Shown: piece by piece, positions 3,181 to 39,701 of the stretch
How positions within the stretch are numbered: the stretch's first letter is position 1
How the letters are laid out: every line of letters begins with the position of its first letter
Virus record (IMG/VR): IMGVR_UViG_3300037071_003200
Coordinates: 1-64,000 of that record
From: a virus
Lineage: Duplodnaviria; Heunggongvirae; Uroviricota; Caudoviricetes
Direction: 5' to 3' (one strand)
Length of the DNA: 64,000 nt
Program-made: the position numbers and the translations under genes
The notes under the pieces: model-generated
What the model was told of the DNA's origin: nothing
The model's database searches: none
Seen by the model: the letters and a program-made list of their open reading frames with translations, nothing else

Positions 3181-3371
3181 CGAAGCAGGCAGTCGAAGTG
3201 ACGGTCGACGAGGTGCGGCTGTTCCTATACGAGAAGCTCTTCCACGAGTACCAGGGAGAGAACGTGGAGTCTCCGCGAGCGTTCGTCGGGCTGCAGGGCG
3301 ACAAGGTCGTCCTCATGCAAACGGGCGGGGAGCCTCTGGTTGTCCTGGTGAAGACGGCGGTGATGGCGTGA
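3177..3371 (+). CDS. Hypothetical protein
   Basis: 64-aa ORF, ATGA-coupled to RtcB. Confidence 0.45.
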   Translation: MTKQAVEVTVDEVRLFLYEKLFHEYQGENVESPRAFVGLQGDKVVLMQTGGEPLVVLVKTAVMA

Positions 3372-4684
3372 GCGTCACGATTTTCGGTGAGCCCGATCCC
3401 GGTGCTGTCGCGCAGATCGAGAACGTCATGCGCGACGAGCGAGCCCAGGAAGGTGCGCTCATGGCTGACCACCACCTCGGCTACTCGATGCCGATCGGTG
3501 GCGTTGTCGCCTACCAGGACGCGATCTCTCCTTCTGGCGTCGGCTACGACATCGCCTGCGGGAACATGGCCGCGCGAACCGTCCTCACCCGCTCCGATCT
3601 CGTGGACGATCTGAAGCCGCTCATGCGTCAGATCCAGAAGAAGGTCGCCTTCGGCATGGGCCGACGAAACGACGAGCCCTACGACCACGCGCTCTTCGAC
3701 GACGAGTTGTGGAAGACCGAGGAGCTTTCGCCGATCCTGGACAAGGCGCGAGCGCAGCTGGGAACCGTCGGCTCGGGCAATCACTACGTCGACCTACTCG
3801 TCGATAGCGAGGACCGCGTCTGGGTTGCGAACCACTTCGGCTCTCGAGGCTTCGGACACACGGTCGCCACGCTGTTCATGAAGCGCGCCTACGGGCTCGC
3901 CGACGACGCTCGCTTCACCGAGACCGACGAGCCCGCCGTCCTCGACATCGGCACCTACAACGGTGACCTCTACGTCTCCGCGATGGAGCTCGCTGGCAAG
4001 TACGCCTATGCCGGTCGCGAGTACGTCATGGACCAGGTCGTGCGCGAAGTCCTCGGAACCGAGATCGACTTCTCCGTGCACAACCATCACAACTACGCCT
4101 GGCACGAAGACGATCGCTGGGTTGTGCGCAAGGGCGCCACGCCGCTCGAGCTGGAACCCGCCTTCATCGGTGGCTCGATGGGCGACGTGTCCGTGATCGT
4201 GCGAGGGAAGCCCGACGTCGGATTCGAGGATGGCCACGTGTACGGGGTGGATGACATCGGCGCACTGGGCTCTGCTCCACATGGCGCCGGTCGAGTCATG
4301 TCGCGCACGAAGGCGGCCGGGAAGATCCGGAAGATGTGGTACTGCCCGAATCGCAACTGCGACTTCGAGCCCTTCCGGGCGATGGACAACCTCGTCGCCA
4401 CCTCCGGTCTTGAGAACGGCAAGTGCCCCCGCTGCGGAATTCCGGTGCGCAAGGGCCGGATGCGCGACACCGCGGACGCGGCCATCGACTGGGACGCGGT
4501 GCGAGCCGATCTGGGCTCTCGCGGGATCGCAGTCCTTGGCGCCGGCGCCGACGAAGCGCCGGGCGTCTACAAGGACCTCACCAGCGTGATCGCCGCCCAC
4601 TCGAACATCGAGGTGCTGCACACCCTGCACCCGATCGGCGTCGTCATGGCTGGCTCCGACGTCTTCGATCCGTACAAAGACTGA
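3368..4684 (+). CDS. rtcB: RtcB-family RNA ligase (tRNA repair/splicing ligase) with an inserted zinc ribbon
   Basis: 438 aa. RtcB signatures are MADHHLGYSMPIGGVVAY, GYDIACGNMAART, HNHHNYAWHED and SAPHGAGRVMSR. A Cys4 ribbon (CPNRNCDF...KCPRCG) is inserted near the C-terminus. Confidence 0.85.
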   Translation: MSVTIFGEPDPGAVAQIENVMRDERAQEGALMADHHLGYSMPIGGVVAYQDAISPSGVGYDIACGNMAARTVLTRSDLVDDLKPLMRQIQKKVAFGMGRRNDEPYDHALFDDELWKTEELSPILDKARAQLGTVGSGNHYVDLLVDSEDRVWVANHFGSRGFGHTVATLFMKRAYGLADDARFTETDEPAVLDIGTYNGDLYVSAMELAGKYAYAGREYVMDQVVREVLGTEIDFSVHNHHNYAWHEDDRWVVRKGATPLELEPAFIGGSMGDVSVIVRGKPDVGFEDGHVYGVDDIGALGSAPHGAGRVMSRTKAAGKIRKMWYCPNRNCDFEPFRAMDNLVATSGLENGKCPRCGIPVRKGRMRDTADAAIDWDAVRADLGSRGIAVLGAGADEAPGVYKDLTSVIAAHSNIEVLHTLHPIGVVMAGSDVFDPYKD

Positions 4685-4899
4685 TGGATGCCCAGGGGCG
4701 ACTTGATTTCTACAACCGCTTCATGGAGGCCTTCTCCGAAGCGCTCGCTGGGCGACGTATTCTTGAGCTGTCCGACGACGAGCTCTACGTCCTGCAGGAC
4801 TTCCTGTGGGCCGCGACTGACGACGTCGTATCCGAATGGGCACGACGAGAGATGCGGAAGCGATCCCCGTTTCCGCCCGTAGAAAGGGAGACCCTATGA
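4684..4899 (+). CDS. Hypothetical protein
   Basis: ATG at 4684 overlaps the rtcB stop (TGATG). 71 aa. Confidence 0.45.
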   Translation: MDAQGRLDFYNRFMEAFSEALAGRRILELSDDELYVLQDFLWAATDDVVSEWARREMRKRSPFPPVERETL

Positions 4900-5195
4900 G
4901 CACGCTCAAGCGGCAGGGAGACATCCTGCTGGAGAAGGTCCACCTTGCGGTGGATCCGCTCAAGCGCGTCGTCGAGGACGGCGTCATCGCTCGCGGAGAG
5001 GTGACGGGTCATGCGCATCGCGTGGAGGGCGGTGTCCTGGTGCACACGAACCGCGGCATGGCGGTCGTCTCCGACGGAGAGACCACGGTCACCCACGACG
5101 AGCACTCCTCGCTCGAGCTGGAAGAGGGAATCTGGCTCGTTCACCGCCAGGTCGAGTACGTCGGCCCTGGCGAGGAAGTCGGGGTGTACGACTGA
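4896..5195 (+). CDS. Hypothetical protein
   Basis: ATGA overlap. MSTLKRQGDILLEKVHLAVDPLKRV..., 99 aa. Confidence 0.45.
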   Translation: MSTLKRQGDILLEKVHLAVDPLKRVVEDGVIARGEVTGHAHRVEGGVLVHTNRGMAVVSDGETTVTHDEHSSLELEEGIWLVHRQVEYVGPGEEVGVYD

Positions 5196-5911
5196 TGGAG
5201 GCCGACTACACGATGGTGGCCGAGGCGCGGGGCCAGAGGGTTCTCTGGTTCCGCCGCTTCGGCTCCTATCAGGGCGACTGGCTCCTGCTTTCGCGAGACG
5301 ACGATCGCTACTACATCTACAAGGACTCGTACGGGTCGTGCTCCGGCTGCGACGCGATCGAGGGCGAGTTCGGCTACACCGGCGCTGACAAGCTCACCCC
5401 GGACAACCCCCAGGTCCAGGAATTCATCAAGGACTACCTGCCGTTCCTGGAGATGCGACCAGAAGCCGCGCTTCGTGTCGCCACCGAGAAGGGGAACATC
5501 TTCTCGGTGCTGCCGCGCAACCGACGCGAATGGCAGGACGACTTCTCGCACGAGGATGTCGGACGGCAGCTCGCGTTGATCATCAAGGCCGACCACGGTC
5601 CGCTCAGCGCGTCCGAGATTCTGGAGATCGACAACCAGGAGACTCGTCGCGAGCAGATCGAGCGCATCGGCGCTGAGGCCTTCGTCGCCGAGATCGGTGC
5701 GGTCGAGGAAGACCGCGAGGGCGAGAACGTGCTCATGCGCATCAAGCGCGAGGGCCAGCCCGACTACGTCTTCATGTACGTCAAGGACCCCTCCACCGAG
5801 CGGCGCTACGTCATCCGCACCGACCCGGCGCACACGAGCGTGCGTGCCGCCAGAGCGGCGAGCTTCGGCATGACCGAGGAGCAGTTCGAGCACCTGGTGA
5901 TCGAGACATGA
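5195..5911 (+). CDS. Hypothetical protein
   Basis: 238-aa ORF with a varied, non-repetitive composition. Confidence 0.55.
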   Translation: MEADYTMVAEARGQRVLWFRRFGSYQGDWLLLSRDDDRYYIYKDSYGSCSGCDAIEGEFGYTGADKLTPDNPQVQEFIKDYLPFLEMRPEAALRVATEKGNIFSVLPRNRREWQDDFSHEDVGRQLALIIKADHGPLSASEILEIDNQETRREQIERIGAEAFVAEIGAVEEDREGENVLMRIKREGQPDYVFMYVKDPSTERRYVIRTDPAHTSVRAARAASFGMTEEQFEHLVIET

Positions 5912-6213
5912 GCGAGCAGCTCTCAGATCAGCGTCTCCACGAGCTACTCGATGCAGCCGAGGGACTGGAAGTCCACGAGGGCGAGCTCCACCTCCTCGCC
6001 GCTGAGGTTCGCGAGCGCCGGCGCCAGTCGGGCTACACCCGCGAGCAGCGGCTCGCCTTCTTGCTGCGAGTGGTCAAGGACTCGTTCCCGGAGATCACCA
6101 ACGATCTTCGGAAGATCTACGAGGAGCAGAACAACGACATCTACTACTCGCGGCGCGATCGCGAGTACTGGAAGGCCGAGTACGACAAGCTGAAGGAGGC
6201 CGCGAGTGATTGA
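5908..6213 (+). CDS. Hypothetical protein
   Basis: 101 aa, ATGA-coupled. Confidence 0.5.
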   Translation: MSEQLSDQRLHELLDAAEGLEVHEGELHLLAAEVRERRRQSGYTREQRLAFLLRVVKDSFPEITNDLRKIYEEQNNDIYYSRRDREYWKAEYDKLKEAASD

Positions 6214-6553
6214 GTACCGGGGATCACTTCGGAAGGACAAGCGCTTCGAGGGCGGGTTCAATCTGAAGGCGGGCACGGTCATCTACGTCCGCGAGACGGA
6301 CCACGGCTGGATCGGTATGTACTACGAGGAGAAGGGCTCCGGTCATGGATTCGCGCTGGAGGGCGACGACTTCTCGATCTGGAGGAACCCCGACGGTCAG
6401 AACGAGATCATCCTCATGAAGGAAGAGCCAGAGGATCAGGCCGAGCTCGCCCGCGTCCGCGAGATCGAGATCAAGCAGGCCCACAGGAAGGCTGCGGCCA
6501 CCGCCGATCGCGCCCGTGAGGCGCAGGCCGAGCTAGACAGGCTGCTCGCATGA
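6206..6553 (+). CDS. Hypothetical protein
   Basis: 115-aa ORF. Confidence 0.5.
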   Translation: MIEYRGSLRKDKRFEGGFNLKAGTVIYVRETDHGWIGMYYEEKGSGHGFALEGDDFSIWRNPDGQNEIILMKEEPEDQAELARVREIEIKQAHRKAAATADRAREAQAELDRLLA

Positions 6554-6753
6554 CCTGGGGAGGCTTCGTCCTCGCCTTCGTCCTTGGCTGGCTGGCCTGC
6601 TGGTACCTCTCGAGCTTCCTGGTCAAGCGCGTACTGCGAAAAGGCGACGCGATGATGACCGATGCCCTCAAAGGACTGCCTCAGACGTCTCTCGTGCGCA
6701 TCTACAAGGCCGCCGGTGCCGAAATCGAGCACCGGAAGGCGGAAATCGACTGA
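6550..6753 (+). CDS. Small membrane protein
   Basis: N-terminal transmembrane helix WGGFVLAFVLGWLACWYLSSFLV. Confidence 0.45.
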   Translation: MTWGGFVLAFVLGWLACWYLSSFLVKRVLRKGDAMMTDALKGLPQTSLVRIYKAAGAEIEHRKAEID

Positions 6754-6764
6754 AAGGAGCCCAC

Positions 6765-7265
6765 ATGGGCCTGTTCGACAGCAAAACCGACCCGACGACC
6801 GAGCGTTTCGATGCTCTGATGGAGGAAATGGCCGATCTGAAGCGATCGGTGACCGAATTGAAGGGCGAGAGGGCCGCGACGAGCAAGATTCGCGACATGG
6901 AGCGCGAATACGTCGACACGAAGCGCCAACTGACCGATCTCCAGATCGAATTCGACAAGGAGAAGGAGAAGCACGCCCGCGAGAAGCGCGAAGTCGAGCA
7001 TCTGGTCGGTCTGGAGCGAAAGCGCTCCGAATTCGAGCGCGAGGCGGCCGTGACCGAGGCGAAAGTGGCCGTCCGCGAGGAGAACCTCTCGGCCGAGCAG
7101 CAGCGCTTCAAGGACCAGATGAAATTCATCACCGATCGCTTCGAGAAGGAGATCGACCAGTCGAAGGAGCTGATGATGGAGATCCTCGCTCGTCTGCCCA
7201 AGGTCGAGGCGCTCATGAAGCTCCAGAGCGGAAACGGCTCCAAGGAGCCCGTGGGGGTGGAGTAG
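6765..7265 (+). CDS. Coiled-coil protein
   Basis: 166 aa rich in E/K/R heptad-like segments (EREYVDTKRQLTDLQIEFDKEKEKHAREKREVEHL). Confidence 0.5.
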   Translation: MGLFDSKTDPTTERFDALMEEMADLKRSVTELKGERAATSKIRDMEREYVDTKRQLTDLQIEFDKEKEKHAREKREVEHLVGLERKRSEFEREAAVTEAKVAVREENLSAEQQRFKDQMKFITDRFEKEIDQSKELMMEILARLPKVEALMKLQSGNGSKEPVGVE

Positions 7266-7466
7266 ATGGGGTACTTCACCACCTACCCGTGGTCGTCCAG
7301 TGCGTCGGCGCAGACCATCCAGTTCAACTACAGCGGCAGCACGACGCCGTACTACTACCCCGCTCCGATCCATCCTCCGGCGTCCGTGGTCGAGATGCCC
7401 GAGGGCCCGGTGGAGTGGCTGCGACGGCGGGTCACCGAGATCACCGATCTGGCGTACGCGGCATGA
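7266..7466 (+). CDS. Hypothetical small protein
   Basis: 66-aa ORF with a start adjacent to the upstream stop. Confidence 0.35.
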   Translation: MGYFTTYPWSSSASAQTIQFNYSGSTTPYYYPAPIHPPASVVEMPEGPVEWLRRRVTEITDLAYAA

Positions 7467-7930
7467 GGTTCGCCGAAGGCGACTACGACCATCCAGGCCA
7501 GTGGGCGCTCTGGGAGCACTCGCTGTTCCGTGCGATCAACGGCCAGCGCGGGCAGCGGGTGCTCAAGGACCTGGAGCAGGCGCTACTCGAGCTCCCAGAG
7601 AAGGCCCTCATGGACGGCGGGCTGTCCGACGGGAAGAACGTCTGCGCGGTCGGCGCGTACGTCGCGAAGAAGCGAGTGGACGCTGGCGAGGACCGCGATG
7701 AGGTGCTGGTAGACATGATCGTCCCCCTCGATCACTGGGGCGACGTGGACGGCTGGGAGGTCGAGGACAGGACGATCACGAGCGGCCAGCACGCCGGGAT
7801 GCAGCTCACCATGATCGTTGCGGTTGCGGGCCTGAACGACGACCTCTACAAAGCCACGCCGGAGCGGCGATACGAGATGATGCTCGCGTGGGTGCGGGAG
7901 CGGATCCTTCCAGAGAAGGTGTTGGCATGA
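7463..7930 (+). CDS. Hypothetical protein
   Basis: ATG at 7463 (ATGA overlap), in the frame of ORF 6662..7930. MRFAEGDYDHPGQWALWEHSLFRAING..., 155 aa. Confidence 0.5.
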   Translation: MRFAEGDYDHPGQWALWEHSLFRAINGQRGQRVLKDLEQALLELPEKALMDGGLSDGKNVCAVGAYVAKKRVDAGEDRDEVLVDMIVPLDHWGDVDGWEVEDRTITSGQHAGMQLTMIVAVAGLNDDLYKATPERRYEMMLAWVRERILPEKVLA

Positions 7931-8061
7931 CCTTCCTTCACTGGCTCAGGACGGTCAAGCCCGGCGATGCGCTCAAGTGGGGCGCCGTCGTCTTCGCCTA
8001 CTGCCTCGCCATTCTCTTCCTGATCTCGGTCACGATCGCGATCGTGGAGCAGCACTCATGA
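7927..8061 (+). CDS. Small membrane peptide (44 aa)
   Basis: MTFLHWLRTVKPGDALKWGAVVFAYCLAILFLISVTIAIVEQHS. ATGA overlaps on both sides. Confidence 0.3.
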   Translation: MTFLHWLRTVKPGDALKWGAVVFAYCLAILFLISVTIAIVEQHS

Positions 8062-8534
8062 CCATAAGCCGAGTGTGGCCTCTCTTCTCCGTCTCGATCG
8101 AGCGAGAAGACATCGCGGTTGGCGTGATGCACTCGGTCAAGGTCCCCGACGAGAAATGGACGTTCGTCGACAAGGCCGGGCACGGGCACTTCTGGAGGCT
8201 CTATTCCAAGAAGCCCTCCGACATCCCCACCTGCAAGGAGGTCGTCACCGGCACGCAGTGGGTTGGCGACGAGATCGACGGCGAGATCTACGAGATCAAG
8301 GAGTGGCAGTGCAGAACGTGCGGCCAGACGATCGAGCCTGGCTATCGCCAGCAGCAGCAGCCAACTCATGTCCCTGGCCCGACCTGGGTCACGATCACGA
8401 TGGAGGGTCGCGAGTACATCGTCACTCCTGAGCAGTACGCCAAGTCGGTTGAGGCGTGGGAGAAGGCCCTGCGAAAGATCAGCGGGGGAACGCCCGACTC
8501 GATCGTCTTCAGCAAGACGGGCGAACAGAAATGA
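8058..8534 (+). CDS. Hypothetical protein with a CxxC zinc-ribbon motif
   Basis: ATG at 8058. EWQCRTCGQTIEPGY is a Cys pair. 158 aa. Confidence 0.5.
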   Translation: MTISRVWPLFSVSIEREDIAVGVMHSVKVPDEKWTFVDKAGHGHFWRLYSKKPSDIPTCKEVVTGTQWVGDEIDGEIYEIKEWQCRTCGQTIEPGYRQQQQPTHVPGPTWVTITMEGREYIVTPEQYAKSVEAWEKALRKISGGTPDSIVFSKTGEQK

Positions 8535-8761
8535 CGGCCGCCGAGAAGGCACGCCGGCTTCTCCCGGAGGGGCGCCTCATGATCAAGCAGGTCGATCCCG
8601 AGATCGGCAGCGGTCTGGTCGTTGCTGAGTGCCGAGGCGACTCCGGCGAGGTGTACTCACTCGGACATGATCCGACGAAGGACGAGTGGCGATGCACCTG
8701 TCGCGAGATGAAGGGCAACTGCTCGCACCTGCAGGCGCTCAAGCTCGTGGTGGTCGTATGA
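8531..8761 (+). CDS. SWIM-type zinc-finger protein
   Basis: WRCTCREMKGNCSHLQAL fits the CxCx(n)CxH SWIM signature. 76 aa. Confidence 0.5.
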   Translation: MTAAEKARRLLPEGRLMIKQVDPEIGSGLVVAECRGDSGEVYSLGHDPTKDEWRCTCREMKGNCSHLQALKLVVVV

Positions 8762-8858
8762 AGATCGGGCGTGGCGGGACCCACCAATGCGGTCAGTCGT
8801 TCGGCATGGCCTGCCATCGAATGACACCGTCGCGCCCGGTACATCCAAAGGAGGACCT

Positions 8859-9050
8859 ATGAGTCCAGCAGAGATCGCCGCGGCGATCAGGGAACTGAGT
8901 GCGTCCGAGCTAGTCGAGCTCGGCAGGCACTTGCACGACGATGAAGGTTGGTGGGAGACTGCGGCTGTTCCTGCCAAGCCCGCACCCGAGTCTCCCGGCG
9001 ATTCAGTCGCCCAAGGGCTTCCGGCTGACTACTGGGAGACGGCGGAATGA
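8859..9050 (+). CDS. Hypothetical acidic small protein
   Basis: ATG at 8859 with ribosome-binding site AAAGGAGGA. 63 aa. Confidence 0.4.
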   Translation: MSPAEIAAAIRELSASELVELGRHLHDDEGWWETAAVPAKPAPESPGDSVAQGLPADYWETAE

Positions 9051-9949
9051 GCAGCGCAACGAAGGATGTCGACGACCTGGTGCGAGCGATCCGGGCGACT
9101 GGCACGCACAACGTGCAGTCGAACGGCGCTCACCACAAGGTGCTCGACGGAGCGGGGCACACCGTGTACGTGCTGCCCAAGACGCCGAGCGATCGGCGCT
9201 GGCGAGAGAACGCGATCCACGAGCTGATCAAGCAGGGCGTGTTCGAGGGTGATCCGAAGAAGGCCAGGAAGGAGAAGGGTCGCTTGCGACTGACCGACCC
9301 TGACGTACAGGCGATGAAGGTTGCGGCCGTCAAGGCTCGAGCTGCGAGGCTCGCGGCCGATACGGCTGTCGTCCGTGATCGCATCCAGCCGCTGGTCACG
9401 AAGATCGGGGGCTGGGGGATGCGCGAGGGCCAGGTCACCGCGTCCGAGCTCGGCATGGTGGCGAAGCACTGGGGCCGCGATCGACCGGATGTGTGGAAGA
9501 CGGACGGTGCTGCGAAGTCGTCGGCTCAGAACAACATGAAGCACGCTGGCGGCTGCTCCCCGCAGGCCCTCGGCTTCTGGGATGCCTTCGTCACCGACTG
9601 GGAGCTCGCCGATGATCCTCGACGCTGGTACTTCGATCTCGCTCGGGAGATGAAGGGCTTGGCCCCGATCGAAACGAAGGTCATCGTTGGTGGTGCCGAG
9701 CTCACCGAGACCACAACTACTTCGGCGAAGCCGAACCTTCGACGAGCCGGAAGAGTGAGGACATACAGAATGGAGGGAGAAGAGAAGCATCCACTGGAGC
9801 CAGACATCGTTGTCGGCCATCTCGCACTCAGAGCTGTTGCTCTGATGGCCGCCGGACGAGAGACAATCGACATTGAAGAGGTGCTCGAAGTCGGCGAGCA
9901 GATTCTCGCCCTCGAGAATCGAGCACAAACGGAAGGAGAGGAAGAGTGA
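9047..9949 (+). CDS. Protein with an N-terminal HicA/YcfA-like (mRNA interferase fold) domain fused to a roughly 230-aa C-terminal region
   Basis: [30 protein letters not shown]...[10 protein letters not shown] resembles the HicA pattern G-S-H-H ... v-P-x-H ... l-k-q-a-G. 300 aa in total. Confidence 0.5.
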
Positions 9950-10518
9950 AAACGATCATCGTTGCAGCCCTGCTCGCGATCTGCGCAGGCCTGCTCAGCG
10001 TCACGCCCGCGATCGCGGGCGGTGGTGGCTACGAGTGCCACTGCGAGAAGGGGGAGCCTGGGCCTCCCGGTCCTCCCGGCCCGAAGGGCGACAAGGGCTA
10101 CAAGGGCGACCAAGGCCCTCCCGGCCCTCCTGGGCAGGGTGAGCCAGGTCCGAAGGGTGATCCCGGTCCTGCCGGCCCTGCCGGACCGAAGGGCGATACT
10201 GGGCCCGGTGGCCCAGGCGGCCCAGGCGGCCCCGCAGGACCTTCTGGCCCGAAGGGTGACGCAGGCCCTCCCGGCCCCGCAGGGCCTCCTGGAGAGGCGG
10301 GGCCTCCCGGCCCGGCAGGGAAGGTAGGCAAGTCCGGCACCGTGAAGCTCAAGCCGACGATCATCTACCGCACGGAGCCGGGTCTGCTCAAGCGGATCAA
10401 GCTGCTGGAGATCAAGATCCGCAAGCTGGAGAAGTGGTGTCCGATGCCGCCCGCACCATGCCCGAAGGGCTACACGCGCAACCCGAGCGGTGGCTGCTCG
10501 CCACAGGGAAGCGGTTAA
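9946..10518 (+). CDS. Secreted collagen-like (Gly-Pro-Pro type) protein
   Basis: GTG start with ribosome-binding site GGAAGGAGAGG. Signal peptide [24 protein letters not shown], then about 110 aa of uninterrupted Gly-X-Y triplets ([28 protein letters not shown]...), then a coiled segment and a Cys-containing C-terminus. Confidence 0.65.
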
Positions 10519-10539
10519 CTTCGATGAACGGGAGGGAAC

Positions 10540-10719
10540 ATGCGCAAGCTGATCGTGGCGATCTTCGTCACAGCTCTGCTCGTCCCGGCAACGGCGGCGG
10601 CGCAGCACGTCAAGACCAACTCGGCCAAGCCGAACCCGATCAGGGAGTACGGCAAGTACCGTCCGAACCCCGGCCCGAAGACGTACCGCTTCGTCGGGGG
10701 AGCGCATCGGGCGCAGTAG
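10540..10719 (+). CDS. Small secreted peptide (59 aa)
   Basis: ATG with ribosome-binding site GGGAGGGA. Signal-peptide-like MRKLIVAIFVTALLVPATAAAQ. Absent from the ORF track only because it is under 60 aa. Confidence 0.35.
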   Translation: MRKLIVAIFVTALLVPATAAAQHVKTNSAKPNPIREYGKYRPNPGPKTYRFVGGAHRAQ

Positions 10720-10940
10720 ACCCCGGCATCGCCGCCGCGCTCGACGTTGTTCATCGGGCGCGGCTCGACCAGGAGTGGGAGTGCGCTCGTTCCTGATCCT
10801 CGTCTCTCCGTGGGTGGTGGTGGCCGTCCTTCTCTGGATGTACGCCACCACCCCGGCAGGGGTCGAGCGATGAGCACCGTGATCGCCATCGTCGTCATTG
10901 CCTGGATCGTCATCCTCGCCTTCAACGGCTGGGAGTTCTG

Positions 10941-11189
10941 ATGTCCGCTTCCGAGAAGCTGAAGAACGCCGCGCCGTGGGATCAGTGGCGCGAATACTGC
11001 AACTCAGACGTCCTCGACCTGATCGAGTCGGACGACATGGATCGTCTGCTCAACGCTCTCCCGCAGATCGTGGCGGTGGTCGAGGCGGCGGAGACGCTCC
11101 CAATGCTCTTCGACGTTGTGGGAGGTTCGACCATCAAGACTCTCAGCTTTGTGCCGCTGCTTGATGCTCTCGAAGAGGCGCTGTCGTGA
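10941..11189 (+). CDS. Hypothetical acidic protein
   Basis: 82-aa ORF. Confidence 0.45.
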   Translation: MSASEKLKNAAPWDQWREYCNSDVLDLIESDDMDRLLNALPQIVAVVEAAETLPMLFDVVGGSTIKTLSFVPLLDALEEALS

Positions 11190-11404
11190 GCGAACAGAAC
11201 GTGTCAAAGACGAAGAACGCCTACCGCGCCGAAGGCAAGATCATCCACGTCGGCACTCCGGGAATCTTCCACTTCCCTGCATCGGGATCGAACGAGACAC
11301 GATGCGGCTTCGACATGGCGGAGGCCCGTTCAACGGATCACCCGCTCAGTGAATACGAGCCCTGCGTCGTCTGCTTCGAGGACTGGGATCGGAGCCTGCC
11401 GTGA
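11186..11404 (+). CDS. Hypothetical protein
   Basis: 72-aa ORF with a Cys-containing C-terminus (CGF...CVVCF). Confidence 0.45.
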   Translation: MSEQNVSKTKNAYRAEGKIIHVGTPGIFHFPASGSNETRCGFDMAEARSTDHPLSEYEPCVVCFEDWDRSLP

Positions 11405-11523
11405 CCACGGAACACAAACCACAGAATGTCTGCAAGCACGACGGCTACCTGGCCTCGACCCACTCGCGGCTCAAGAGCGAACTCAAGTGCATGAAGTGCG
11501 GGAAGGTCTGGAAGTCACGGTGA
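11401..11523 (+). CDS. Small zinc-ribbon peptide (40 aa)
   Basis: GTGA overlap. CKHDG...CMKCG is a two-Cys-pair ribbon. Confidence 0.3.
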   Translation: MTTEHKPQNVCKHDGYLASTHSRLKSELKCMKCGKVWKSR

Positions 11524-11609
11524 GTTCGGTCTCTTTGGTAGGCTCGCGCCGTGAAGTCGTTCCCATAGGGCCGCGCCCCTCCGATGGACTAGCTCACAGG
11601 CTGATGCTC

Positions 11610-11682
11610 GCCAGCTAGTTCAATGGTTAGAACACCTCACCTGATGTGGAGGAAATCCTTGGTTCGATTCCAGGGGCTGGCT
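11610..11682 (+). tRNA. tRNA gene, anticodon probably GAT (Ile); the anticodon stem has a bulge or mismatches
   Basis: Acceptor stem GCCAGCT/GGCTGGC pairs over 7 bp. T-arm CTTGG-TTCGATT-CCAGG is canonical. D-stem GTTC/GAAC with loop AATGGTTA. The anticodon loop reads CCTGATG, but the anticodon stem CCTCA/TGGAGG is imperfect. No encoded CCA. Confidence 0.55.
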
Positions 11683-11689
11683 CTCTCAT

Positions 11690-11758
11690 GCGGCTGCGTA
11701 CTGGGTACCGAGTCGATTCTAAACCGGCCTCGGGCGGGTTCGATCCCCGTCAGCCGCT
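11690..11758 (+). tRNA. Non-canonical tRNA-like gene with a truncated D-arm; anticodon loop reads TTCTAAA (possible CUA amber-suppressor anticodon)
   Basis: Acceptor stem GCGGCTG/CAGCCGC is perfect. T-arm GCGGG-TTCGATC-CCCGT is canonical. Putative anticodon arm GTCGA-TTCTAAA-CCGGC has a 4-bp stem plus an A.C closing pair. The D region is only about 13 nt (GTAC-TGG-GTAC). Total length 69 nt. Confidence 0.35.
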
Positions 11759-11795
11759 CTTGATGTAGTCCTGCCGTTCATCTAACCTCGGAAGC

Positions 11796-11867
11796 CGCGG
11801 GCGACTCGGTCGGAGCAGAGGGTGCGCTCATAACGCACAGAACCGGGTTCGACTCCCGGGCCCGCTA
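11796..11867 (+). tRNA. tRNA-Met (anticodon CAT)
   Basis: Anticodon arm GTGCG-CTCATAA-CGCAC is perfect with U33. T-arm CCGGG-TTCGACT-CCCGG is perfect. Acceptor stem CGCGGGC/GCCCGCT has 6 bp plus a C1.T72 mismatch. Discriminator A. Confidence 0.7.
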
Positions 11868-11871
11868 CTCG

Positions 11872-12069
11872 ATGCGAGTGTTGCGCTTCATCCATCGCTG
11901 GTTTACGAACCAGCCGCCTGCGTCGCTCGACGCGATCGTGTCGAGCGGTCGACTGACCGATGCGGAAGCTCGGTACCTGTGGGCGCTCTGTCGGAGCGGA
12001 CGCAGGACGCCGGATTGGCTTGCCGACAAGATGGTCGGTCGCAACACCCAGGAGACGGTTCCGGGCTAA
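11872..12069 (+). CDS. Hypothetical protein
   Basis: 65-aa ORF starting 5 nt after tRNA-Met. Confidence 0.3.
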   Translation: MRVLRFIHRWFTNQPPASLDAIVSSGRLTDAEARYLWALCRSGRRTPDWLADKMVGRNTQETVPG

Positions 12070-12083
12070 GCCGGGGAGGACAC

Positions 12084-12299
12084 ATGGCGACGCCCAACCG
12101 TAACGGTGGGGCAGTCGTTCCGGTCCGCCTCACTGACATCGACATCAAGATCCGGCGCCGGCGGGGCAAGGCGCTGTACGAGGCCGCGGTCGCCGACCGC
12201 GACATCGACCTCGCCATGCGCCTCGACGCGGCGATCGAGCGTCCTTCGGATCAGGTCTACTGGCTGCCTGCGACGGCGGTGCGGAAGGCCCTGCCGTGA
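12084..12299 (+). CDS. Hypothetical protein
   Basis: ATG at 12084 with ribosome-binding site GGGGAGGA. 71 aa. Confidence 0.45.
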   Translation: MATPNRNGGAVVPVRLTDIDIKIRRRRGKALYEAAVADRDIDLAMRLDAAIERPSDQVYWLPATAVRKALP

Positions 12300-12667
12300 A
12301 GACGATCGAGCATCGACACGTCGAGCTCCCCTCGGCGAGCCTGTGCAACCCGAAGCTCACGGCAACGAAGATGGAGCACTCGTTCTGCCGCCTCGGCGAC
12401 TGGCGCTGCGCCCGGATGACGCGACACCACCTCGTCCCGGAGTCCTGGTTCCTGCGTCAGCCCATGCACCTGCGACAGATCCGAAACGCGCACGCGAACA
12501 TCATCCCGCTCTGCCGCTGGCATCACGATCTCGTGGAGTCGAAGCATCCGGTAGTCCGCTTACAGGCGCGTCGACTTCTGCGTGCCTCGCTGCTGCAGGA
12601 GGAGATCGCGTTCGCCATCCAGCTGCGCGGAAGAGACTGGATCGACTCGGAGTATCCGGTCGTCTGA
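12296..12667 (+). CDS. HNH homing-type endonuclease
   Basis: RHHLVPES...NIIPLCRWHHDLVE carries the HNH core His-His-Asn-His with Cys ligands. Sits directly upstream of the terminase genes, as is typical for HNH partners of the packaging machinery. Confidence 0.7.
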   Translation: MKTIEHRHVELPSASLCNPKLTATKMEHSFCRLGDWRCARMTRHHLVPESWFLRQPMHLRQIRNAHANIIPLCRWHHDLVESKHPVVRLQARRLLRASLLQEEIAFAIQLRGRDWIDSEYPVV

Positions 12668-12680
12668 TTACCCTTCGGGC

Positions 12681-12944
12681 ATGGATGAACACGAGGTTCG
12701 GGTCATCGTTCGCGAGGAGATCGCTTCGCTCGCAGGGAAGGCTCTACGCCGGACGCAGGACCGCAGTTACACGCGCTCGATCGAGCGGAACATGGCGATC
12801 GACGTCGCCAATGACGAGCTGGCGGAGTTCTGGGGCGAGGTGCTCTCGGAGTACGGGGACGTGATCATGGATGGCGACAAGGTCGTCGGCTGGCCGACCC
12901 CCGCCGAGTCCGTCGATATCCCCGCCGAGGCTTCCGACAAGTAG
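12681..12944 (+). CDS. Hypothetical protein
   Basis: ATG at 12681 in the frame of ORF 12582..12944. 87 aa. Confidence 0.45.
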   Translation: MDEHEVRVIVREEIASLAGKALRRTQDRSYTRSIERNMAIDVANDELAEFWGEVLSEYGDVIMDGDKVVGWPTPAESVDIPAEASDK

Positions 12945-12947
12945 CCC

Positions 12948-13463
12948 ATGAGCCAGCTCGAGGAGCGCGAAGAGCGCCAGGAGCTCGCCGTCTCAGACAT
13001 CACCGAGGCTGAGAAGGCCCAGTTCCTGCAGCTGGTCAGGCAGGGCCACGATCGCCAGGAGGCGGCGAAGATCCTCGGCTACAAGGCTCGGCCCTGGCGA
13101 GCAGTCTGTTCGCCGTCCTCGCCTCACTACGACGAGGACTTCGCGAACGCCTACGCCGAAGCGATCGGCTCGCCCGAGGCGAAGCTCTATTTCATCGAGC
13201 GCCTGCGCGAGGAGACTCTGCGGCGAGCGCTGACCGATTCCGATCGCCTCCTGGAGAAGCTCATGCTCGTTCACGACCCGGACTGGGTGCCTCTCCGGCA
13301 GAAGGATGTGAACGTGAACATCCACGCCTACATCCAGCAGCACTTCAAGGACCTGCCCACCGACCTCCTGGAGCAGCTGCTCGCAGCGCTCGACCGGGAG
13401 GCTGCCGGTGAGATCGTCGAAGGCGAGGTCAACGAGTTACCGCCCGGCGGTAATGACGACTGA
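12948..13463 (+). CDS. Putative terminase small subunit (helix-turn-helix protein)
   Basis: 171 aa directly upstream of the large terminase. FLQLVRQGHDRQEAAKILGY is a helix-turn-helix. Assigned by position and size only. Confidence 0.45.
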   Translation: MSQLEEREERQELAVSDITEAEKAQFLQLVRQGHDRQEAAKILGYKARPWRAVCSPSSPHYDEDFANAYAEAIGSPEAKLYFIERLREETLRRALTDSDRLLEKLMLVHDPDWVPLRQKDVNVNIHAYIQQHFKDLPTDLLEQLLAALDREAAGEIVEGEVNELPPGGNDD

Positions 13464-13659
13464 CTCCTACGGTGGCACGAAGATCAAACGGCCCAGGTGG
13501 GCCATCAAAGAGCTGTGGCCCTGGGATGGGCCAGACAGGCTGTCTCTGTGGGAGCGCTGGCACGCCGATCCCAAGCGCCTCGGCCTCGAGCCCGAGCCTC
13601 TTCTATGGTGGGAGACCGACGTGGTGAGAAAGGAAGAAGAGTGGCCGCTGGCAGCGTGA
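13453..13659 (+). CDS. Hypothetical small protein overlapping the putative TerS end
   Basis: ATG at 13453 in the frame of ORF 13408..13659. MTTDSYGGTKIKRPRWAIKELWPWDG..., 68 aa. Confidence 0.3.
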   Translation: MTTDSYGGTKIKRPRWAIKELWPWDGPDRLSLWERWHADPKRLGLEPEPLLWWETDVVRKEEEWPLAA

Positions 13660-15284
13660 AAGAACGCGAGGAGATGCGCCAGGCCTTGCGCCAGGAGATC
13701 GTCGATCGCAAGGTCTCGGATGAGGCCGAGCGTCTCGGCCAGTCGTTGAGTGCCTTCGTCAGGGAGGCGTGGCCGCACGTCAAGAAGCACGAGCAGTACC
13801 GGCACAACTGGCACCTCGACGCGATCAACATTCACCTGGAGGCCGTGAGCGCGGGCGAGATCCATCGCCTGCAGATCTGGGTCCCGCCGGGTTCGATGAA
13901 GTCGCTGTCGGTGTCCGTCTTCTGGCACGCCTGGGAGTGGACGACGCGGCCGTGGCTTCGCTACTGGTCGGCCTCGTACGAGACCCGCCTGGCGGGACGT
14001 CTCTCGGCGATGGCCCGCGACCTCATGCTGGAGCGCTGGTACCAGGAGCGCTGGGGCCCGCTCTTCAAGTTCAACCGCGACGCCGAGCACTACTACGGCA
14101 ACGACCAGGGCGGCACGCGCCTGGCGACGTCACCGGACTCGTCAGGAACCGGCGAGCACGGGCACCGCATCATCATCGACGACCCGATCAACGCAAAGGA
14201 CGCCGACGCCACCTCGAAGTCGACGCTTGACACCGTGAATGGGTGGTTCGATGGCACCGTCCCCTCGCGCGGTCTCGACGGAGTCCTCTCGCCTGACGGC
14301 GATATCATCGACCACGCCCGCGTCATCATCATGCAGCGCCTGCACGAGGACGACCTCGCTGCTCACGCCCTCGAGAACGATCGCGATTACGTCGTCCTGT
14401 GCATCCCGGAGCGCTACTACGCGGGCCATCCGTTCGCTTACCGCGGACAGGGCGGGCACACCTCGACTGAGGACCTCGGCTCGACGTTCGGGCCCGGAGA
14501 TCCGCGCATCGAGGACGAGCTGCTGTGGCCGGATCGCCGTTCCGAGAAGGCATCGGATGCGCTCAAGGCCCAGCTGAAGCATCGCGCCGCGGGTCAGCTC
14601 CAGCAGATGCCCGCGCCGAAGGAAGGCCAGTCGCTCCTGCGCTCGTGGTGGCGCTTCTACGATCCGAACCTCTTCAACGACGTGAAGCGCCGCCCCCGCT
14701 GCTCGATGGTCGTTCAGTCGATCGACTGCCCGCTCAAGGACAAGCAGACGAACGACATGATCTCGATCCAGGCCTGGGGCTGCAAGGGCGCCGATCGCTA
14801 CCTGATCGACATCCGCACGTCGCACATGAGTTACTCGCAGGCCAAGCGCGCCGTCATCGAGCAGGCGAGGTACGTCCGGGCGATGTACCCGAAGGCTCGC
14901 CAGAAGATCCTCATCGAGAACGGCGGCTACGGGCCCGAGCTCATCGTCGACCTGAAGCGCATCCTTACCGGCGTCGAAAAGGTCAGCCCAGCCTCGGAGG
15001 GCGACAAGGAGATCCGCGCCGACTCGGCTGCCGACGACCTGCAGGCGGGCAACGTCTGGTTGCCGGGGATCGGCGCCGGCGCCGATACGACACTGGGCCC
15101 GGCGGGCACCGTCTCCAAGGACATCAACGACTTCATCGAGTCGTGCGCGGTCTTCCCCCACGGCAAGCACGACGACGATGTCGACGCCTGGTCGCAGGCG
15201 ATGAACTGGCTGCGCTCGCAGATCATCATTCCCGGTCGCACTGGCAGTGCCTACAAGGGGATGCGCAAGCGGGTGGCGGCATGA
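13656..15284 (+). CDS. Terminase large subunit
   Basis: GTG at 13656 (GTGA overlap); an alternative ATG lies at 13674. ATPase motifs VPPGSMKS (Walker A-like) and IIIDDP (Walker B). C-terminal RNase H-like nuclease with acidic residues (ILIENGGYG, HGKHDDDVDAW). Confidence 0.85.
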   Translation: MKEREEMRQALRQEIVDRKVSDEAERLGQSLSAFVREAWPHVKKHEQYRHNWHLDAINIHLEAVSAGEIHRLQIWVPPGSMKSLSVSVFWHAWEWTTRPWLRYWSASYETRLAGRLSAMARDLMLERWYQERWGPLFKFNRDAEHYYGNDQGGTRLATSPDSSGTGEHGHRIIIDDPINAKDADATSKSTLDTVNGWFDGTVPSRGLDGVLSPDGDIIDHARVIIMQRLHEDDLAAHALENDRDYVVLCIPERYYAGHPFAYRGQGGHTSTEDLGSTFGPGDPRIEDELLWPDRRSEKASDALKAQLKHRAAGQLQQMPAPKEGQSLLRSWWRFYDPNLFNDVKRRPRCSMVVQSIDCPLKDKQTNDMISIQAWGCKGADRYLIDIRTSHMSYSQAKRAVIEQARYVRAMYPKARQKILIENGGYGPELIVDLKRILTGVEKVSPASEGDKEIRADSAADDLQAGNVWLPGIGAGADTTLGPAGTVSKDINDFIESCAVFPHGKHDDDVDAWSQAMNWLRSQIIIPGRTGSAYKGMRKRVAA

Positions 15285-15484
15285 AGTTCCTCGGCCGCGG
15301 TCTCTCGAAGTCCGATGTGGACGCGCTCGAACGGTCGATCCCGACAAACGATCCGATCGCGCAGCGCAACCCGGAGCGCCCGCTCTACTCCGGCACCCAC
15401 GAGGAGATCGAAGAGGCACTCGTGCCCTGGCTTCGGCGGCGAAGGAGAGCAGCTCGCCAACGCTCTCGTCGGTCGATCTGGTGA
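15281..15484 (+). CDS. Hypothetical small basic protein
   Basis: ATGA overlap with TerL and GTGA overlap with the next gene. 67 aa. Confidence 0.3.
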   Translation: MKFLGRGLSKSDVDALERSIPTNDPIAQRNPERPLYSGTHEEIEEALVPWLRRRRRAARQRSRRSIW

Positions 15485-16167
15485 TCGCGATCCTCGTCCC
15501 GGTCCTCGGTAGACCGCAGAACGCACAGCCACTCGTCGACTCGATTAAGCAGGCGACGACGGTTCCTCACCGCATCCTCTTCCTCTGCACGCCGTTTGAC
15601 GTCGATGAGATCAATGCCGTTCACGAGACCGGCGCCGACATCCACAACGTCCGCTGGGAAGCCGGTCCCGGTGACTGGGCGAAGAAGATCAACCAGGGCT
15701 ATCGCCTGACGGAAGAGCCCTTCATCCTTCTCGCCGCCGATGACCTTCGCTTCCACACTGGCTGGGACACCGAGGTGCTCCGCGTGGCCGAAGAGACGGG
15801 CGCTGGCGTCATCGGCACGAACGATCTCGGTAACGCGACGGTCATGCGCGGGCTCCACTCGACGCACCCCGTCGTTCGTCGCTCCTACGTGGACGAGTAC
15901 GGGACGATCGACGAGCCCGGCAAGGTCCTGCACGAGGGCTACCGCCATCAGTGGGTCGACACCGAGCTCATCGCCACGGCGCAGATGCGTCACCAGTGGG
16001 CGTTCGCGAAGGGATCGCATGTCGAGCACATGCACCCGTTCTGGAAGAAGGGAAAGATGGACGCGACGTACGAGAAGGCACTCTCAACTCCGACCGAGGA
16101 CTTCGCGCACTTCAACCAGCGCAAGCACCTGTGGTCCCGAGCAGCGATGAAAGCGAGGTCAGCATGA
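15481..16167 (+). CDS. GT-A fold glycosyltransferase (family 2-like)
   Basis: GTG at 15481 (there is no ATG in the conserved region). N-terminus VIAILVPVLGRP, a DxD-like motif AADDLRF, and a conserved C-terminal half. Confidence 0.5.
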   Translation: MIAILVPVLGRPQNAQPLVDSIKQATTVPHRILFLCTPFDVDEINAVHETGADIHNVRWEAGPGDWAKKINQGYRLTEEPFILLAADDLRFHTGWDTEVLRVAEETGAGVIGTNDLGNATVMRGLHSTHPVVRRSYVDEYGTIDEPGKVLHEGYRHQWVDTELIATAQMRHQWAFAKGSHVEHMHPFWKKGKMDATYEKALSTPTEDFAHFNQRKHLWSRAAMKARSA

Positions 16168-16493
16168 ACGACGTCAAGATCCACGTGAAGGGGATCGAGG
16201 GATCGAGCCTGGTCGAGAAGGACGGTGTTCCGGCGGCGCTCTTCGGAGCTGTGCTCGAAGTCGACGGCCACATCATCGAGACGGCCTTCAAGATCGAGGT
16301 CACCTTCGAGGAGGGCTTCGTCACGGTCACCCCTCACTTCTACCCCGGCACGTTCACCGTCGTCTCGCACGACAAGGAGTCCTGGCACGAGTTCGCGGCG
16401 AGGATGGAGCTCGAGTACAACCAGAAGAAGACCGCTCGCGATGGACTTGGCCGGGCACTCGCCCGCGTGCTCAATGAGGATGGAGATGGGTGA
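16164..16493 (+). CDS. Hypothetical protein
   Basis: ATG at 16164 (ATGA overlap). 109 aa. Confidence 0.45.
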   Translation: MNDVKIHVKGIEGSSLVEKDGVPAALFGAVLEVDGHIIETAFKIEVTFEEGFVTVTPHFYPGTFTVVSHDKESWHEFAARMELEYNQKKTARDGLGRALARVLNEDGDG

Positions 16494-16716
16494 GCTGATC
16501 GAGTTCCCGCTGCATCGTCGCTTCCAGAACGATCCACCACCCGACTCCGTGCTCGATGTCGTCGCGCAAACGGACGAGTGCAGCGAGTACATCCATGTCT
16601 TCGTCGAGGTGCCTGGTCGCTGCAAGTGCGGCGAGAACGAATGGACGGAAGACCACACTCTGGAGCCCGAGGGCATCGGCATCCACCACGTCTTCGACCC
16701 ACCGCCCGCCTCCTGA
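16486..16716 (+). CDS. Hypothetical Cys/His-containing protein
   Basis: ATG at 16486 (alternative ATG at 16480). ...GRCKCGENEWTEDH... Confidence 0.4.
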   Translation: MGELIEFPLHRRFQNDPPPDSVLDVVAQTDECSEYIHVFVEVPGRCKCGENEWTEDHTLEPEGIGIHHVFDPPPAS

Positions 16717-16734
16717 CTTCTCAGGACTGAGAAG
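16717..16734. terminator. Palindromic hairpin CTTCTCAGGACTGAGAAG immediately after a stop codon
   Basis: 8-bp perfect arms starting 1 nt after the TGA at 16714-16716. There is no U-tract. It shares its arms with palindrome 1378-1395. Confidence 0.3.
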
Positions 16735-16869
16735 ACGGCCCGCTCCGGGGTTGGTTCGCCGGGGCCGCAAAGATTCCGAGGAGTCTTTGCACGCTGGCCA
16801 AGTCAGCTTCTCACCCACACGCCGAGCGGACCGTCCACCTACCAGTCCGGCTCGCGTGAGTGAGTTCTT

Positions 16870-16943
16870 ATGCCCGCCCCGGGACTCGAACCCGGAAACC
16901 TCCGTTTCTGAGACGGAGTGCTATGCCGATTCGCTAGACGGGC
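16870..16943 (-). tRNA. tRNA gene (minus strand); anticodon loop CTCAGAA, giving anticodon CAG but a class-I short variable arm
   Basis: On the reverse complement, acceptor stem GCCCGTC/GGCGGGC (7 bp including a G.U pair), T-arm CCGGG-TTCGAGT-CCCGG perfect, anticodon stem TCCGT/ACGGA with an extra closing pair. The D-arm is poorly paired. Discriminator A. Confidence 0.55.
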
Positions 16944-16944
16944 A

Positions 16945-17014
16945 ATGGGGCCCCGAGGAATCGAACCTCGTCCTGTCGGGTTACAGCCGAGCATGCGCCA
17001 CTACACCAGGACCC
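16945..17014 (-). tRNA. tRNA gene (minus strand); anticodon loop CTGTAAC, giving anticodon GTA (Tyr-type) with a short variable arm
   Basis: On the reverse complement, acceptor stem GGGGTCC/GGGCCCC (7 bp), D-arm GTGT-AGTGGCGC-ATGC, T-arm CGAGG-TTCGATT-CCTCG perfect, discriminator A. Lies 1 nt from the neighbouring tRNA. Confidence 0.55.

Positions 17015-34982: not shown

Positions 34983-39701
<4,719 letters not shown>

Follow-up and report, generated by a model that had tools for sequence, protein, structure and literature searches.

An RtcB-type RNA ligase and five unusual tRNA genes as separate accessory genes of an uncultured high-GC tailed phage

Overview of the locus

The stretch of DNA analysed here, hereafter the window, comprises positions 1 to 64,000 of the IMG/VR virus record IMGVR_UViG_3300037071_003200 (Caudoviricetes), and this work deals with a gene for an RtcB-type RNA ligase near its left end and with five tRNA genes that lie downstream of it in two clusters (Table 1). 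Comparison with close relatives indicated that the ligase and the tRNAs were gained and lost independently, in a subfamily of RtcB proteins which is itself found beside tRNA arrays in both phages and bacteria. The source of the window is an uncultured high-GC tailed phage of roughly 100 kb, since the identical RtcB protein was found on JGI metagenome contigs reaching 100.9 kb and no close cultured phage was found: a megablast search of positions 3000-17500 against 50,697 phage records returned a single match, of 52 nucleotides (nt), to a terminase. The G+C content of the window ranges from 62 to 70%, and from about 1.9 kb on nearly all of its coding capacity lies on the plus strand.

Table 1. 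Positions of the RtcB gene, the tRNA genes and their main neighbours in the window
Feature	Positions	Strand	Basis
RtcB 3'-phosphate/5'-hydroxyl RNA ligase, 438 aa	3368..4684	+	Pfam, PHROG, alignment, AlphaFold2/Foldseek
Zn-ribbon-like insertion of RtcB, aa 319-367	4322..4468	+	mapped against P. horikoshii RtcB
tRNA-Ile (GAU)	11610..11683	+	ARAGORN default; Rfam tRNA, 39.2 bits
tRNA, anticodon CUA (amber-reading type)	11690..11759	+	ARAGORN only at -ps90
tRNA-Met (CAU)	11796..11868	+	ARAGORN default; under Rfam tRNA threshold
tRNA-Leu (CAG)	16870..16944	-	ARAGORN default; Rfam, 45.2 bits
tRNA-Tyr (GUA), 70 nt	16946..17015	-	ARAGORN default; Rfam, 49.2 bits
Terminase small subunit (TerS)	12948..13463	+	PHROG 4044
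Terminase large subunit (TerL)	13497..15284	+	PHROG 38
SPFH/Band_7 (HflK-like) gene	17214..18185	+	PHROG 200, NCBIfam hflK

The RtcB ligase

The RtcB open reading frame (ORF) matched Pfam PF01139 with E=4.7e-64 (217.6 bits, for a cut-off of 27) and PHROG 1075, 'tRNA splicing ligase', at 2e-72. A phmmer alignment against the PDB placed the catalytic residues of Pyrococcus horikoshii RtcB on counterparts in the window protein: D65/H67 and D95/C98 on D34/H36 and D61/C64, N202/H203, H234 and H329 on N138/H139, H156 and H238, and the GMP-accepting H404 on H305, within the motif PHGAGR. All of these aligned residues, including the His and Cys metal ligands whose loss would have spoken against a working enzyme, were invariant in an alignment of 37 homologues. 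The AlphaFold2 (AF2) model built on that alignment reached a predicted local distance difference test score of 83.9 and a predicted template-modelling (TM) score of 0.84, and its top 16 Foldseek matches in the PDB were all RtcB proteins (E down to 2e-23, TM 0.51-0.68), the human and Pyrococcus enzymes among them with TM 0.6-0.68. The protein is thus, on every count that could be tested from its sequence and its model, an intact member of the RtcB family, as the first-pass annotation had proposed.

The gene overlaps the small ORFs on either side of it, by 4 nt upstream (GTGA) and 1 nt downstream, and is therefore embedded in a rightward operon; the rightward unit continues into the terminase genes. 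A divergent intergenic region was found near 1.2-1.9 kb, and the source contig has, ahead of the window, numerous short genes that point leftward. Rightward transcription, RtcB included, presumably starts from that divergent region, and the gene layout suggests that RtcB would be expressed early.

Within the family, the closest cellular homologues were found in Gaiellaceae (56% identity), Solirubrobacterales, Patulibacter and Vicinamibacterales, and the best RtcB of a cultured phage was 44% identical. The protein scored far under the cut-offs of PRK09588, the model of E. coli-type RtcB (91.5 for 407 bits), and of TIGR03073, the model of PrfH-coupled RtcB (64.4 for 271.8 bits). Scans with Pfam (40 window proteins), PHROG, NCBIfam and Rfam, which left some small ORFs unscanned, found no RtcA, RtcR, PrfH, Pnkp, Rnl, archease or Y RNA in the window, nor any Ro60, and no gene with a release factor (RF) domain was found near RtcB.

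The first-pass annotation had also described an inserted four-cysteine ribbon, and this was borne out: about 50 residues stand where P. horikoshii RtcB has 5, between the loop of the His305 nucleophile (HGAGR) and the C-terminal segment, and they carry two knuckles, C326-x4-C331 and C353-x2-C356 (CPNRNC...CPRC). The insertion was modelled by AF2 as a beta hairpin, with strands at 319-325 and 361-367. Among the 120 best homologues, most had a cysteine-bearing insertion at this place and the rest a hairpin devoid of cysteines. Cellular RtcBs of Thermoleophilia and Vicinamibacterales display CxxxxC...CPxH/C, with four cysteines or three cysteines and a histidine, and the Paenibacillus type lacks the insertion. 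A phage-specific origin of the Zn ribbon was accordingly ruled out, and it is a lineage trait common to phage and cellular RtcBs.

The tRNA genes

With default settings, ARAGORN called four of the five tRNA genes, and three (Ile, Leu and Tyr) passed the gathering score of the Rfam tRNA model, the Met and CUA elements obtaining only weak scores with the Rfam model of tRNA-Sec. Taken alone, the CUA call would be doubtful, because ARAGORN relaxed to a 90% threshold made 2-7 calls, about 3 on average, per 64 kb of Markov-shuffled sequence. Homologues of this element are present in three relatives of the phage (L205:8719-8788, L210:9313-9383(-) and L212:12698-12767(-); see Table 2), and it is a genuine tRNA gene, since those of L210 and L212 were called at default settings and four of its stem pairs show compensatory changes. 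The five tRNAs announced by the first-pass annotation, at 11610-11867 and 16870-17014, were thus recovered, the four default calls at the expected places and the CUA gene as the fifth. The distance of 7 kb that it gave between RtcB and the first cluster was measured as 6.9 kb from the RtcB stop codon to the first tRNA, and the second cluster follows at 12.2 kb. As it had also noted, the latter, the Leu/Tyr pair, lies on the opposite strand, where it is antisense to every surrounding gene.

RNAalifold, applied to 3-8 homologous sequences per tRNA, identified stem pairs changed on both sides in Leu (5), Tyr (3), CUA (4), Ile (2) and Met (6). The two pairs of tRNA-Ile are in the T stem, in comparison with L205 and L212, and the covariation of tRNA-Met is in the anticodon and T stems; for Leu and Tyr, the homologues compared were those at L209:15137-15284(-) and L212:11902-12129(-). 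All five tRNAs are indeed maintained as structured RNAs, because compensatory double changes were found in each. Between the window and L205, the Ile-CUA-Met cluster shows 96% identity, with spacers that have diverged more than the tRNAs, and tRNA-Met is identical over 73/73 positions. These observations bear on the idea that the tRNAs are decaying remnants, with little present function, of a larger array acquired horizontally together with RtcB. Such an origin would account for the low Rfam scores, two of the five being under the threshold, and would recall the closest IMG/VR relative of the window RtcB (L003), which has 30 tRNA or transfer-messenger RNA (tmRNA) genes upstream of RtcB. It is very improbable in our opinion, given the compensatory substitutions in every tRNA, the unchanged tRNA-Met, the lower divergence of tRNAs than of spacers, and the fact that the tRNAs are not adjacent to RtcB.

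The shapes of these tRNAs deviate from the canonical ones. Leu (73 nt) and Tyr (70 nt) have variable loops of 4-5 nt and hence a class I shape, not the class II architecture with a long variable arm that is expected for these tRNAs, whose array and cellular versions measure 81-88 nt. Identity elements are kept, namely A73 in both and G1-C72 in Tyr. The anticodon stem of tRNA-Leu has 6 base pairs, supported by covariation, and similar short Leu tRNAs were found in L003, L027 and Streptomyces phage Sycamore. The Tyr homologues of L209 and L212 carry C33, at a position where U is near-universal in tRNAs. In tRNA-Ile, the anticodon stem has a bulged A and position 37 is G (C in L205), while A37, the site of t6A, is expected of a tRNA reading ANN codons. 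The acceptor stem of tRNA-Met begins with a C1xU72 mismatch, and CxU or UxU occupies 1:72 in most copies among the relatives; this is reminiscent of initiator tRNA, and an initiator, an elongator or an Ile2-type tRNA are all candidates. The CUA tRNA combines a 1-nt linker between acceptor and D stems, a D stem of 4 base pairs with a loop of 3-4 nt, a variable loop of about 2 nt and an anticodon stem extended to 7 base pairs with a bulge, again supported by covariation. This shape, with its single-nucleotide linker, tiny D loop, long anticodon stem and minimal variable loop, is reminiscent of tRNA-Pyl, and its acceptor end (G1-C72, C2-G71, G3-C70, U73) resembles the acceptor identity of tRNA-Gly.

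Such features could mean that the tRNAs of deviant shape serve above all to stand in for host tRNAs while resisting nucleases, or as decoys or sponges for anticodon nucleases, and not to decode in the usual way, the sponge idea having been raised before (PMC8421152). The conservation of the unusual architectures (no variable arm in Leu and Tyr, extended anticodon stems in Leu and CUA), the C33 of the Tyr homologues and the bulged stem of Ile with G or C at 37 point in that direction. We nevertheless consider this improbable, since A73 in Leu and Tyr and G1-C72 in Tyr are kept, suggesting aminoacylation, and phage annotations regularly include short 'Leu' tRNAs.

Codon usage and amber codons

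In 44 predicted genes of the window, ATC makes up 93% of Ile codons, TAC 90% of Tyr codons and CTG 33% of Leu codons. The codons read by the phage tRNAs (ATC, TAC, CTG and ATG) are thus preferred and not rare ones, which fits the replacement of tRNAs or a boost of translation better than codon compensation; a high-GC host would already decode ATC, TAC and CTG well. A mere boost of phage translation, by codon supply or as a buffer against host shut-off, unrelated to defence or to RtcB, is the classical explanation for phage tRNAs, as discussed in PMC10264068. In its favour, the tRNAs match the most-used synonymous codons of the phage, and tRNA-Met belongs to the core whether RtcB is present or absent (see below). 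We find it rather unlikely, on the other hand, because there is no rare-codon gap to fill and these codons should be those best decoded by a high-GC host, because the antisense slot turns over fast, between 0, 2, 3 and 8 tRNAs, in the manner of arms-race cargo, and because non-canonical shapes would be odd for pure decoders.

The presence of a CUA tRNA raises the matter of amber codons. TAG ends 10 of 53 genes, at normal gene boundaries, and the only two TAG codons flanked by coding sequence in the same frame are both junctions of adjacent genes; reassignment of TAG was therefore ruled out as an explanation of this tRNA, TAG being an ordinary stop in the window. One of these junctions lies upstream of TerS, where ORF 12678-12944 ends in AAG-TAG, in frame with TerS, with a spacer of 3 nt in the window and of 18 nt in L102 (2-205). 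Programmed read-through fusing this ORF to TerS was unsupported: none of 82 TerS relatives was a fused homologue, the two are out of frame in L205, and distant relatives lack the arrangement. The second in-frame TAG junction is at 7263.

Variation among close relatives

Terminase searches of IMG/VR and JGI for close relatives returned only distant or very short loci. True relatives were obtained by a protein search with the TerS region; they have 65-89% TerS identity, and several are on contigs of 88-104 kb. They are syntenic with the window over an RHH gene, small early genes, TerS/TerL, a glycosyltransferase, Band_7, PIG-L and methyltransferases, and differ in the content given in Table 2.

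Table 2. RtcB and tRNA content of the window and of its relatives
Genome	RtcB	Other early-region gene	Plus-strand cluster	Antisense slot upstream of Band_7	Remark
Window	yes		Ile, CUA, Met	Leu, Tyr	
L205 (closest)	no	SpoU methylase	Ile, CUA, Met	empty	
L206	no		Met	empty	
L207	no		Met		no Band_7 gene called
L208	yes	RlaP	Met	empty	
L209	yes		Met	Leu, Tyr, Cys	
L212	not seen		Met	eight tRNAs	contig ends 5.4 kb upstream of TerS
L210	not seen		Met		short contig; CUA tRNA at contig end

A tRNA-Met upstream of TerS was found in every relative whose contig extends that far, and it is core to this phage lineage. By contrast with this fixed gene, RtcB, the Ile/CUA pair and the antisense Leu/Tyr pair have each been gained or lost independently among close relatives. 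Compared gene by gene with L205, the window RtcB is an insertion or deletion beside a shared small gene. The antisense slot, directly upstream of the Band_7 gene in the window, L209 and L212, holds 0, 2, 3 or 8 tRNAs, the eight of L212 being Ile, CUA, Asn, Lys-UUU, Gln-UUG, Tyr, His and Leu; Asn, Lys-UUU, Gln-UUG, Tyr and His tRNAs are typical targets of anticodon nucleases. The early region and this slot are both hypervariable. In the early region of L205, a SpoU-type RNA 2'-O-methyltransferase (2436-2969) replaces the 99-aa ORF and the DUF6745 gene of the window, and that of L208 has an RlaP gene (PF10127; 2905-3693) 1.5 kb upstream of RtcB.

The presence of RtcB and tRNAs within the same 14 kb is not significant in itself, because close relatives devoid of RtcB carry the same tRNAs. 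When 33 ORFs of the window were compared by tblastn with some 200 loci of RtcB or terminase, moreover, no conserved operon partner of RtcB was found, and only Band_7 recurred. RtcB and the tRNAs are hence separate accessory genes, tRNA-Met being core, and the single counter-defence package that the first-pass annotation had proposed here was not supported, its parts varying independently among relatives and being separated by about 15 unrelated genes.

A bolder reading of the same variation is that this lineage maintains a conserved set of structurally deviant tRNAs as nuclease-proof substitutes or decoys in a hypervariable slot, with RtcB, SpoU and RlaP taking one another's place as protective cargo of a second slot. 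The CUA tRNA might then serve regulated amber read-through or blunt toxins directed at stop codons. We put this forward as speculation, with low confidence.

Linkage of RtcB and tRNAs across the subfamily

Linkage was then considered at the level of the protein subfamily, at 60 viral loci recovered from IMG/VR with the RtcB protein and with at least one tRNA within 10 kb as the definition. Such tRNAs were found at 25 of the 60 loci and at none of 13 terminase-selected controls (Fisher's exact p=0.003), in a comparison whose control set is small and unmatched for genome size and which ignores phylogeny. At eight loci (L003, L027, L029, L042, L043, L059, L061 and L067), RtcB is enclosed in an array of 6-30 tRNAs or borders on one, and in five viral loci a tRNA-Pro begins at most 10 nt from the RtcB stop codon.

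The same neighbourhood was found in bacteria. Among the cellular loci of the nearest homologues, 8 of 20 carry tRNAs: in Gaiellaceae, Solirubrobacteraceae and Thermoleophilaceae, 3-21 tRNAs lie directly upstream of RtcB, the arrays of L128 and L133 (17 and 21 tRNAs) ending directly upstream of the gene and smaller sets accompanying it in L129, L138, L143, L146 and L177. A DUF222-HNH gene in L128 and a Ro60/TROVE gene in L143 (Thermoleophilaceae) stand immediately upstream of RtcB. Of 55 further genome loci, mostly from Paenibacillus and Cohnella, 12 carry tRNAs; in about nine of these, mostly from Cohnella, the tRNAs form an array of the type His-Gln-Glu(-Asp-Pro-Asn-Trp) that shares the strand of RtcB and lies 4-7 kb upstream of it. 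The isoacceptors for His, Gln, Glu, Asp, Pro, Asn and Trp are typical targets of anticodon nucleases. The Cohnella and Paenibacillus array loci are L134, L150, L169, L170, L193 and L197-L199.

A functional link between RtcB and tRNAs is thus credible at the subfamily level, because this subfamily sits beside tRNA arrays beyond chance in phages, and also in bacteria. Such a link has been described before: in Anabaena, translational stress induces rtcB together with a long tRNA array, which has HNH and rtcB genes as neighbours (PMC8421152), and RtcB or Rnl ligases have been said to 'supplement' the tRNAs of jumbo phages (PMC7824862). The association proposed by the first-pass annotation consequently holds for the family, in viral loci as in Thermoleophilia and Cohnella, and is not supported as a module in this particular genome.

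Function of the ligase and the tRNAs

We favour, with moderate confidence, the view that these parts serve to repair (RtcB) and to replace (phage tRNAs) the tRNA pool; a coordinated RtcB-tRNA module deserves much less confidence. RtcB and the tRNAs would be two independent accessory cargos answering one need, a usable tRNA pool during infection. As a stand-alone gene of a rightward operon that would start at the divergent region near 1.9 kb, RtcB would, by the chemistry of its family, be guanylylated at His305 with GTP and Mn2+ and pass the GMP to an RNA 3'-phosphate, after opening of the 2',3'-cyclic phosphate, whereupon attack by the 5'-OH would reseal the break. Breaks open to this repair would be the products of RNases that need no metal, among them anticodon nucleases and many toxins. 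The five tRNAs of the two clusters would provide extra or replacement decoders for the codons that the phage prefers, and phage tRNAs are known to evade tRNA-targeting defences (PMC10264068, PMC11555353). tRNA is the most likely substrate of this RtcB, because the neighbours of its subfamily are tRNA arrays; host nucleases or toxins would be the source of the damage. Several genes for RNA repair or rescue recur in RtcB neighbourhoods or among the relatives, namely those for RlaP, the SpoU methylase, Ro60, and NADAR with an RF-1 domain protein.

A number of observations weigh against this view. Three relatives (L205, L206 and L207) carry tRNAs and no RtcB, and a fourth (L208) has RtcB with tRNA-Met only. 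RtcB and the first tRNA are parted by 6.9 kb and about 15 unrelated ORFs, none of which recurs beside RtcB elsewhere. The subfamily statistics have the limits given above. Escape mutations were not apparent either, the anticodon loops of Leu, Tyr and Ile matching those of array tRNAs from candidate host lineages, and in other systems RtcB repairs rRNA (PMC9304027).

This last point leads to the possibility that RtcB mends RNAs other than tRNA (such as 16S or 23S rRNA, or mRNAs cut by ribotoxins or by enzymes of the MazF or colicin-E3 kind), the phage tRNAs being unrelated to it. The RtcB2-PrfH pair indeed repairs 16S rRNA cut by colicin E3 (PMC9304027, PMC9223846). In the phage locus L077, a gene with an RF-1 domain (ArfB-like) and a NADAR gene lie just downstream of RtcB, and the RtcB of L208 comes without accessory tRNAs. 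The window RtcB is far under the TIGR03073 cut-off (64 versus 272 bits), however, with no PrfH nearby, and the recurrent neighbours of its subfamily are tRNA arrays, so that a non-tRNA substrate seems to us rather unlikely. The L077 segment (11508-13144) encodes NADAR, DUF5662 and the RF-1-domain protein.

Comparison with known systems

The function proposed here resembles that of T4 Pnkp and Rnl1 acting on tRNA-Lys cut by PrrC, where phage enzymes reseal anticodon-loop breaks with 2',3'-cyclic phosphate and 5'-OH ends. The chemistry and the proteins are unrelated, however: in T4, ends are healed and then joined by an ATP-dependent ligase, while RtcB seals directly with GTP/Mn2+, and neither Pnkp nor Rnl was among the 40 window proteins scanned with Pfam. 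The RtcBs of jumbo and other cultured phages (among them phiCbK, BcepSaruman, Rhodococcus phage Grayson and mycobacteriophages) stand alone in tRNA-rich genomes, as here, and are annotated as tRNA-splicing or repair ligases proposed to supplement phage tRNAs (PMC7824862). They are only 30-44% identical to the window RtcB, which belongs to a soil clade with the Zn ribbon whose nearest cellular kin are Thermoleophilia.

Among bacterial systems, long tRNA arrays (L-arrays) with HNH and rtcB genes beside them, such as the trn operon of Anabaena, are like the neighbourhoods of the cellular homologues in this subfamily (L128, L133) and of the phage L003. The window differs from them, with 3 + 2 tRNAs on both strands at 6.9 and 12.2 kb from RtcB and no HNH gene beside them, and it comes from a phage and not from a plasmid or chromosome. 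The rtcBA operon of E. coli and Salmonella encodes an enzyme of the same family, presumed to repair damaged tRNA (PMC7790460). It is regulated by RtcR and, in Salmonella, accompanied by Rsr and Y RNA, while the window lacked RtcA, RtcR, Ro60 and Y RNA in the scans; the Ro60 gene beside a close cellular homologue (L143) parallels the Rsr setting of Salmonella. In the PrfH-RtcB2 pair, an RtcB paralogue likewise reverses ribotoxin damage to the translation apparatus, but that paralogue acts on 16S rRNA and depends on PrfH, whereas the window RtcB does not reach the TIGR03073 cut-off and has no PrfH neighbour.

As for the tRNAs, accessory phage tRNAs, Tyr included, act in T5 against retron Eco7 (tRNA-Tyr), against PrrC and PARIS (tRNA-Lys), and in C1 mycobacteriophages (PMC11555353, PMC10264068). 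The tRNAs of the window, which also include a tRNA-Tyr, could likewise make up for host tRNAs that have been depleted, but they are without demonstrable escape mutations relative to comparable tRNAs.

Other features of the window

The two terminase genes sit between the two tRNA clusters. The minus-strand ORF at 15990-16682, close to the antisense tRNAs, is only apparent, being a shadow of two plus-strand genes. Copies of the Band_7 gene, 60-62% identical, were found 2-3 kb from RtcB in the otherwise non-syntenic phages L077, L078 and L081. At the left end, where the first 2 kb have 70% GC, a gene of 301 aa reads leftward (223-1128), and after it comes a hairpin on the minus strand that resembles a terminator (175-154).

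Carbohydrate genes were found at 15247-16167, 19111-25245, 39712-41406 and 49255-50481. They include several glycosyltransferases of families 2 and 1, a PIG-L deacetylase, methyltransferases and a polysaccharide lyase, occur as a set in the relatives L206, L208 and L209 also, and suggest modification of virion or host-surface glycans. A 1404-aa ORF is probably the tape-measure protein. The 1572-aa ORF at 34983-39701 (+) consists mostly of repeats of the collagen-like type G-x-T/G-x-x, ends in a C-terminal domain free of repeats, and is probably a tail fibre; this ORF accounts for a local GC content of 70%, for a strong AT skew and for long ORFs in other frames that are spurious.

Conclusion

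No new principle emerges from this locus, a counter to tRNA-targeting immunity by means of phage tRNAs and ligases having already been proposed in print (PMC7824862, PMC10264068, PMC11555353). Mildly new are an RtcB clade that has the Zn ribbon and is tied to tRNA arrays, both in Actinomycetota of soil and in the phages of these bacteria, the natural series of presence and absence among relatives, and a set of tRNAs with odd but conserved shapes, one of them of amber type in a genome read with the standard code. What use phages have for tRNAs and RNA ligases has long been asked, and recent work points to the evasion of tRNA-cutting immunity. The relatives of about 100 kb described here offer a natural comparison set in this respect, with RtcB present or absent, SpoU or RlaP in the early region, and 0-8 tRNAs in one fixed slot.

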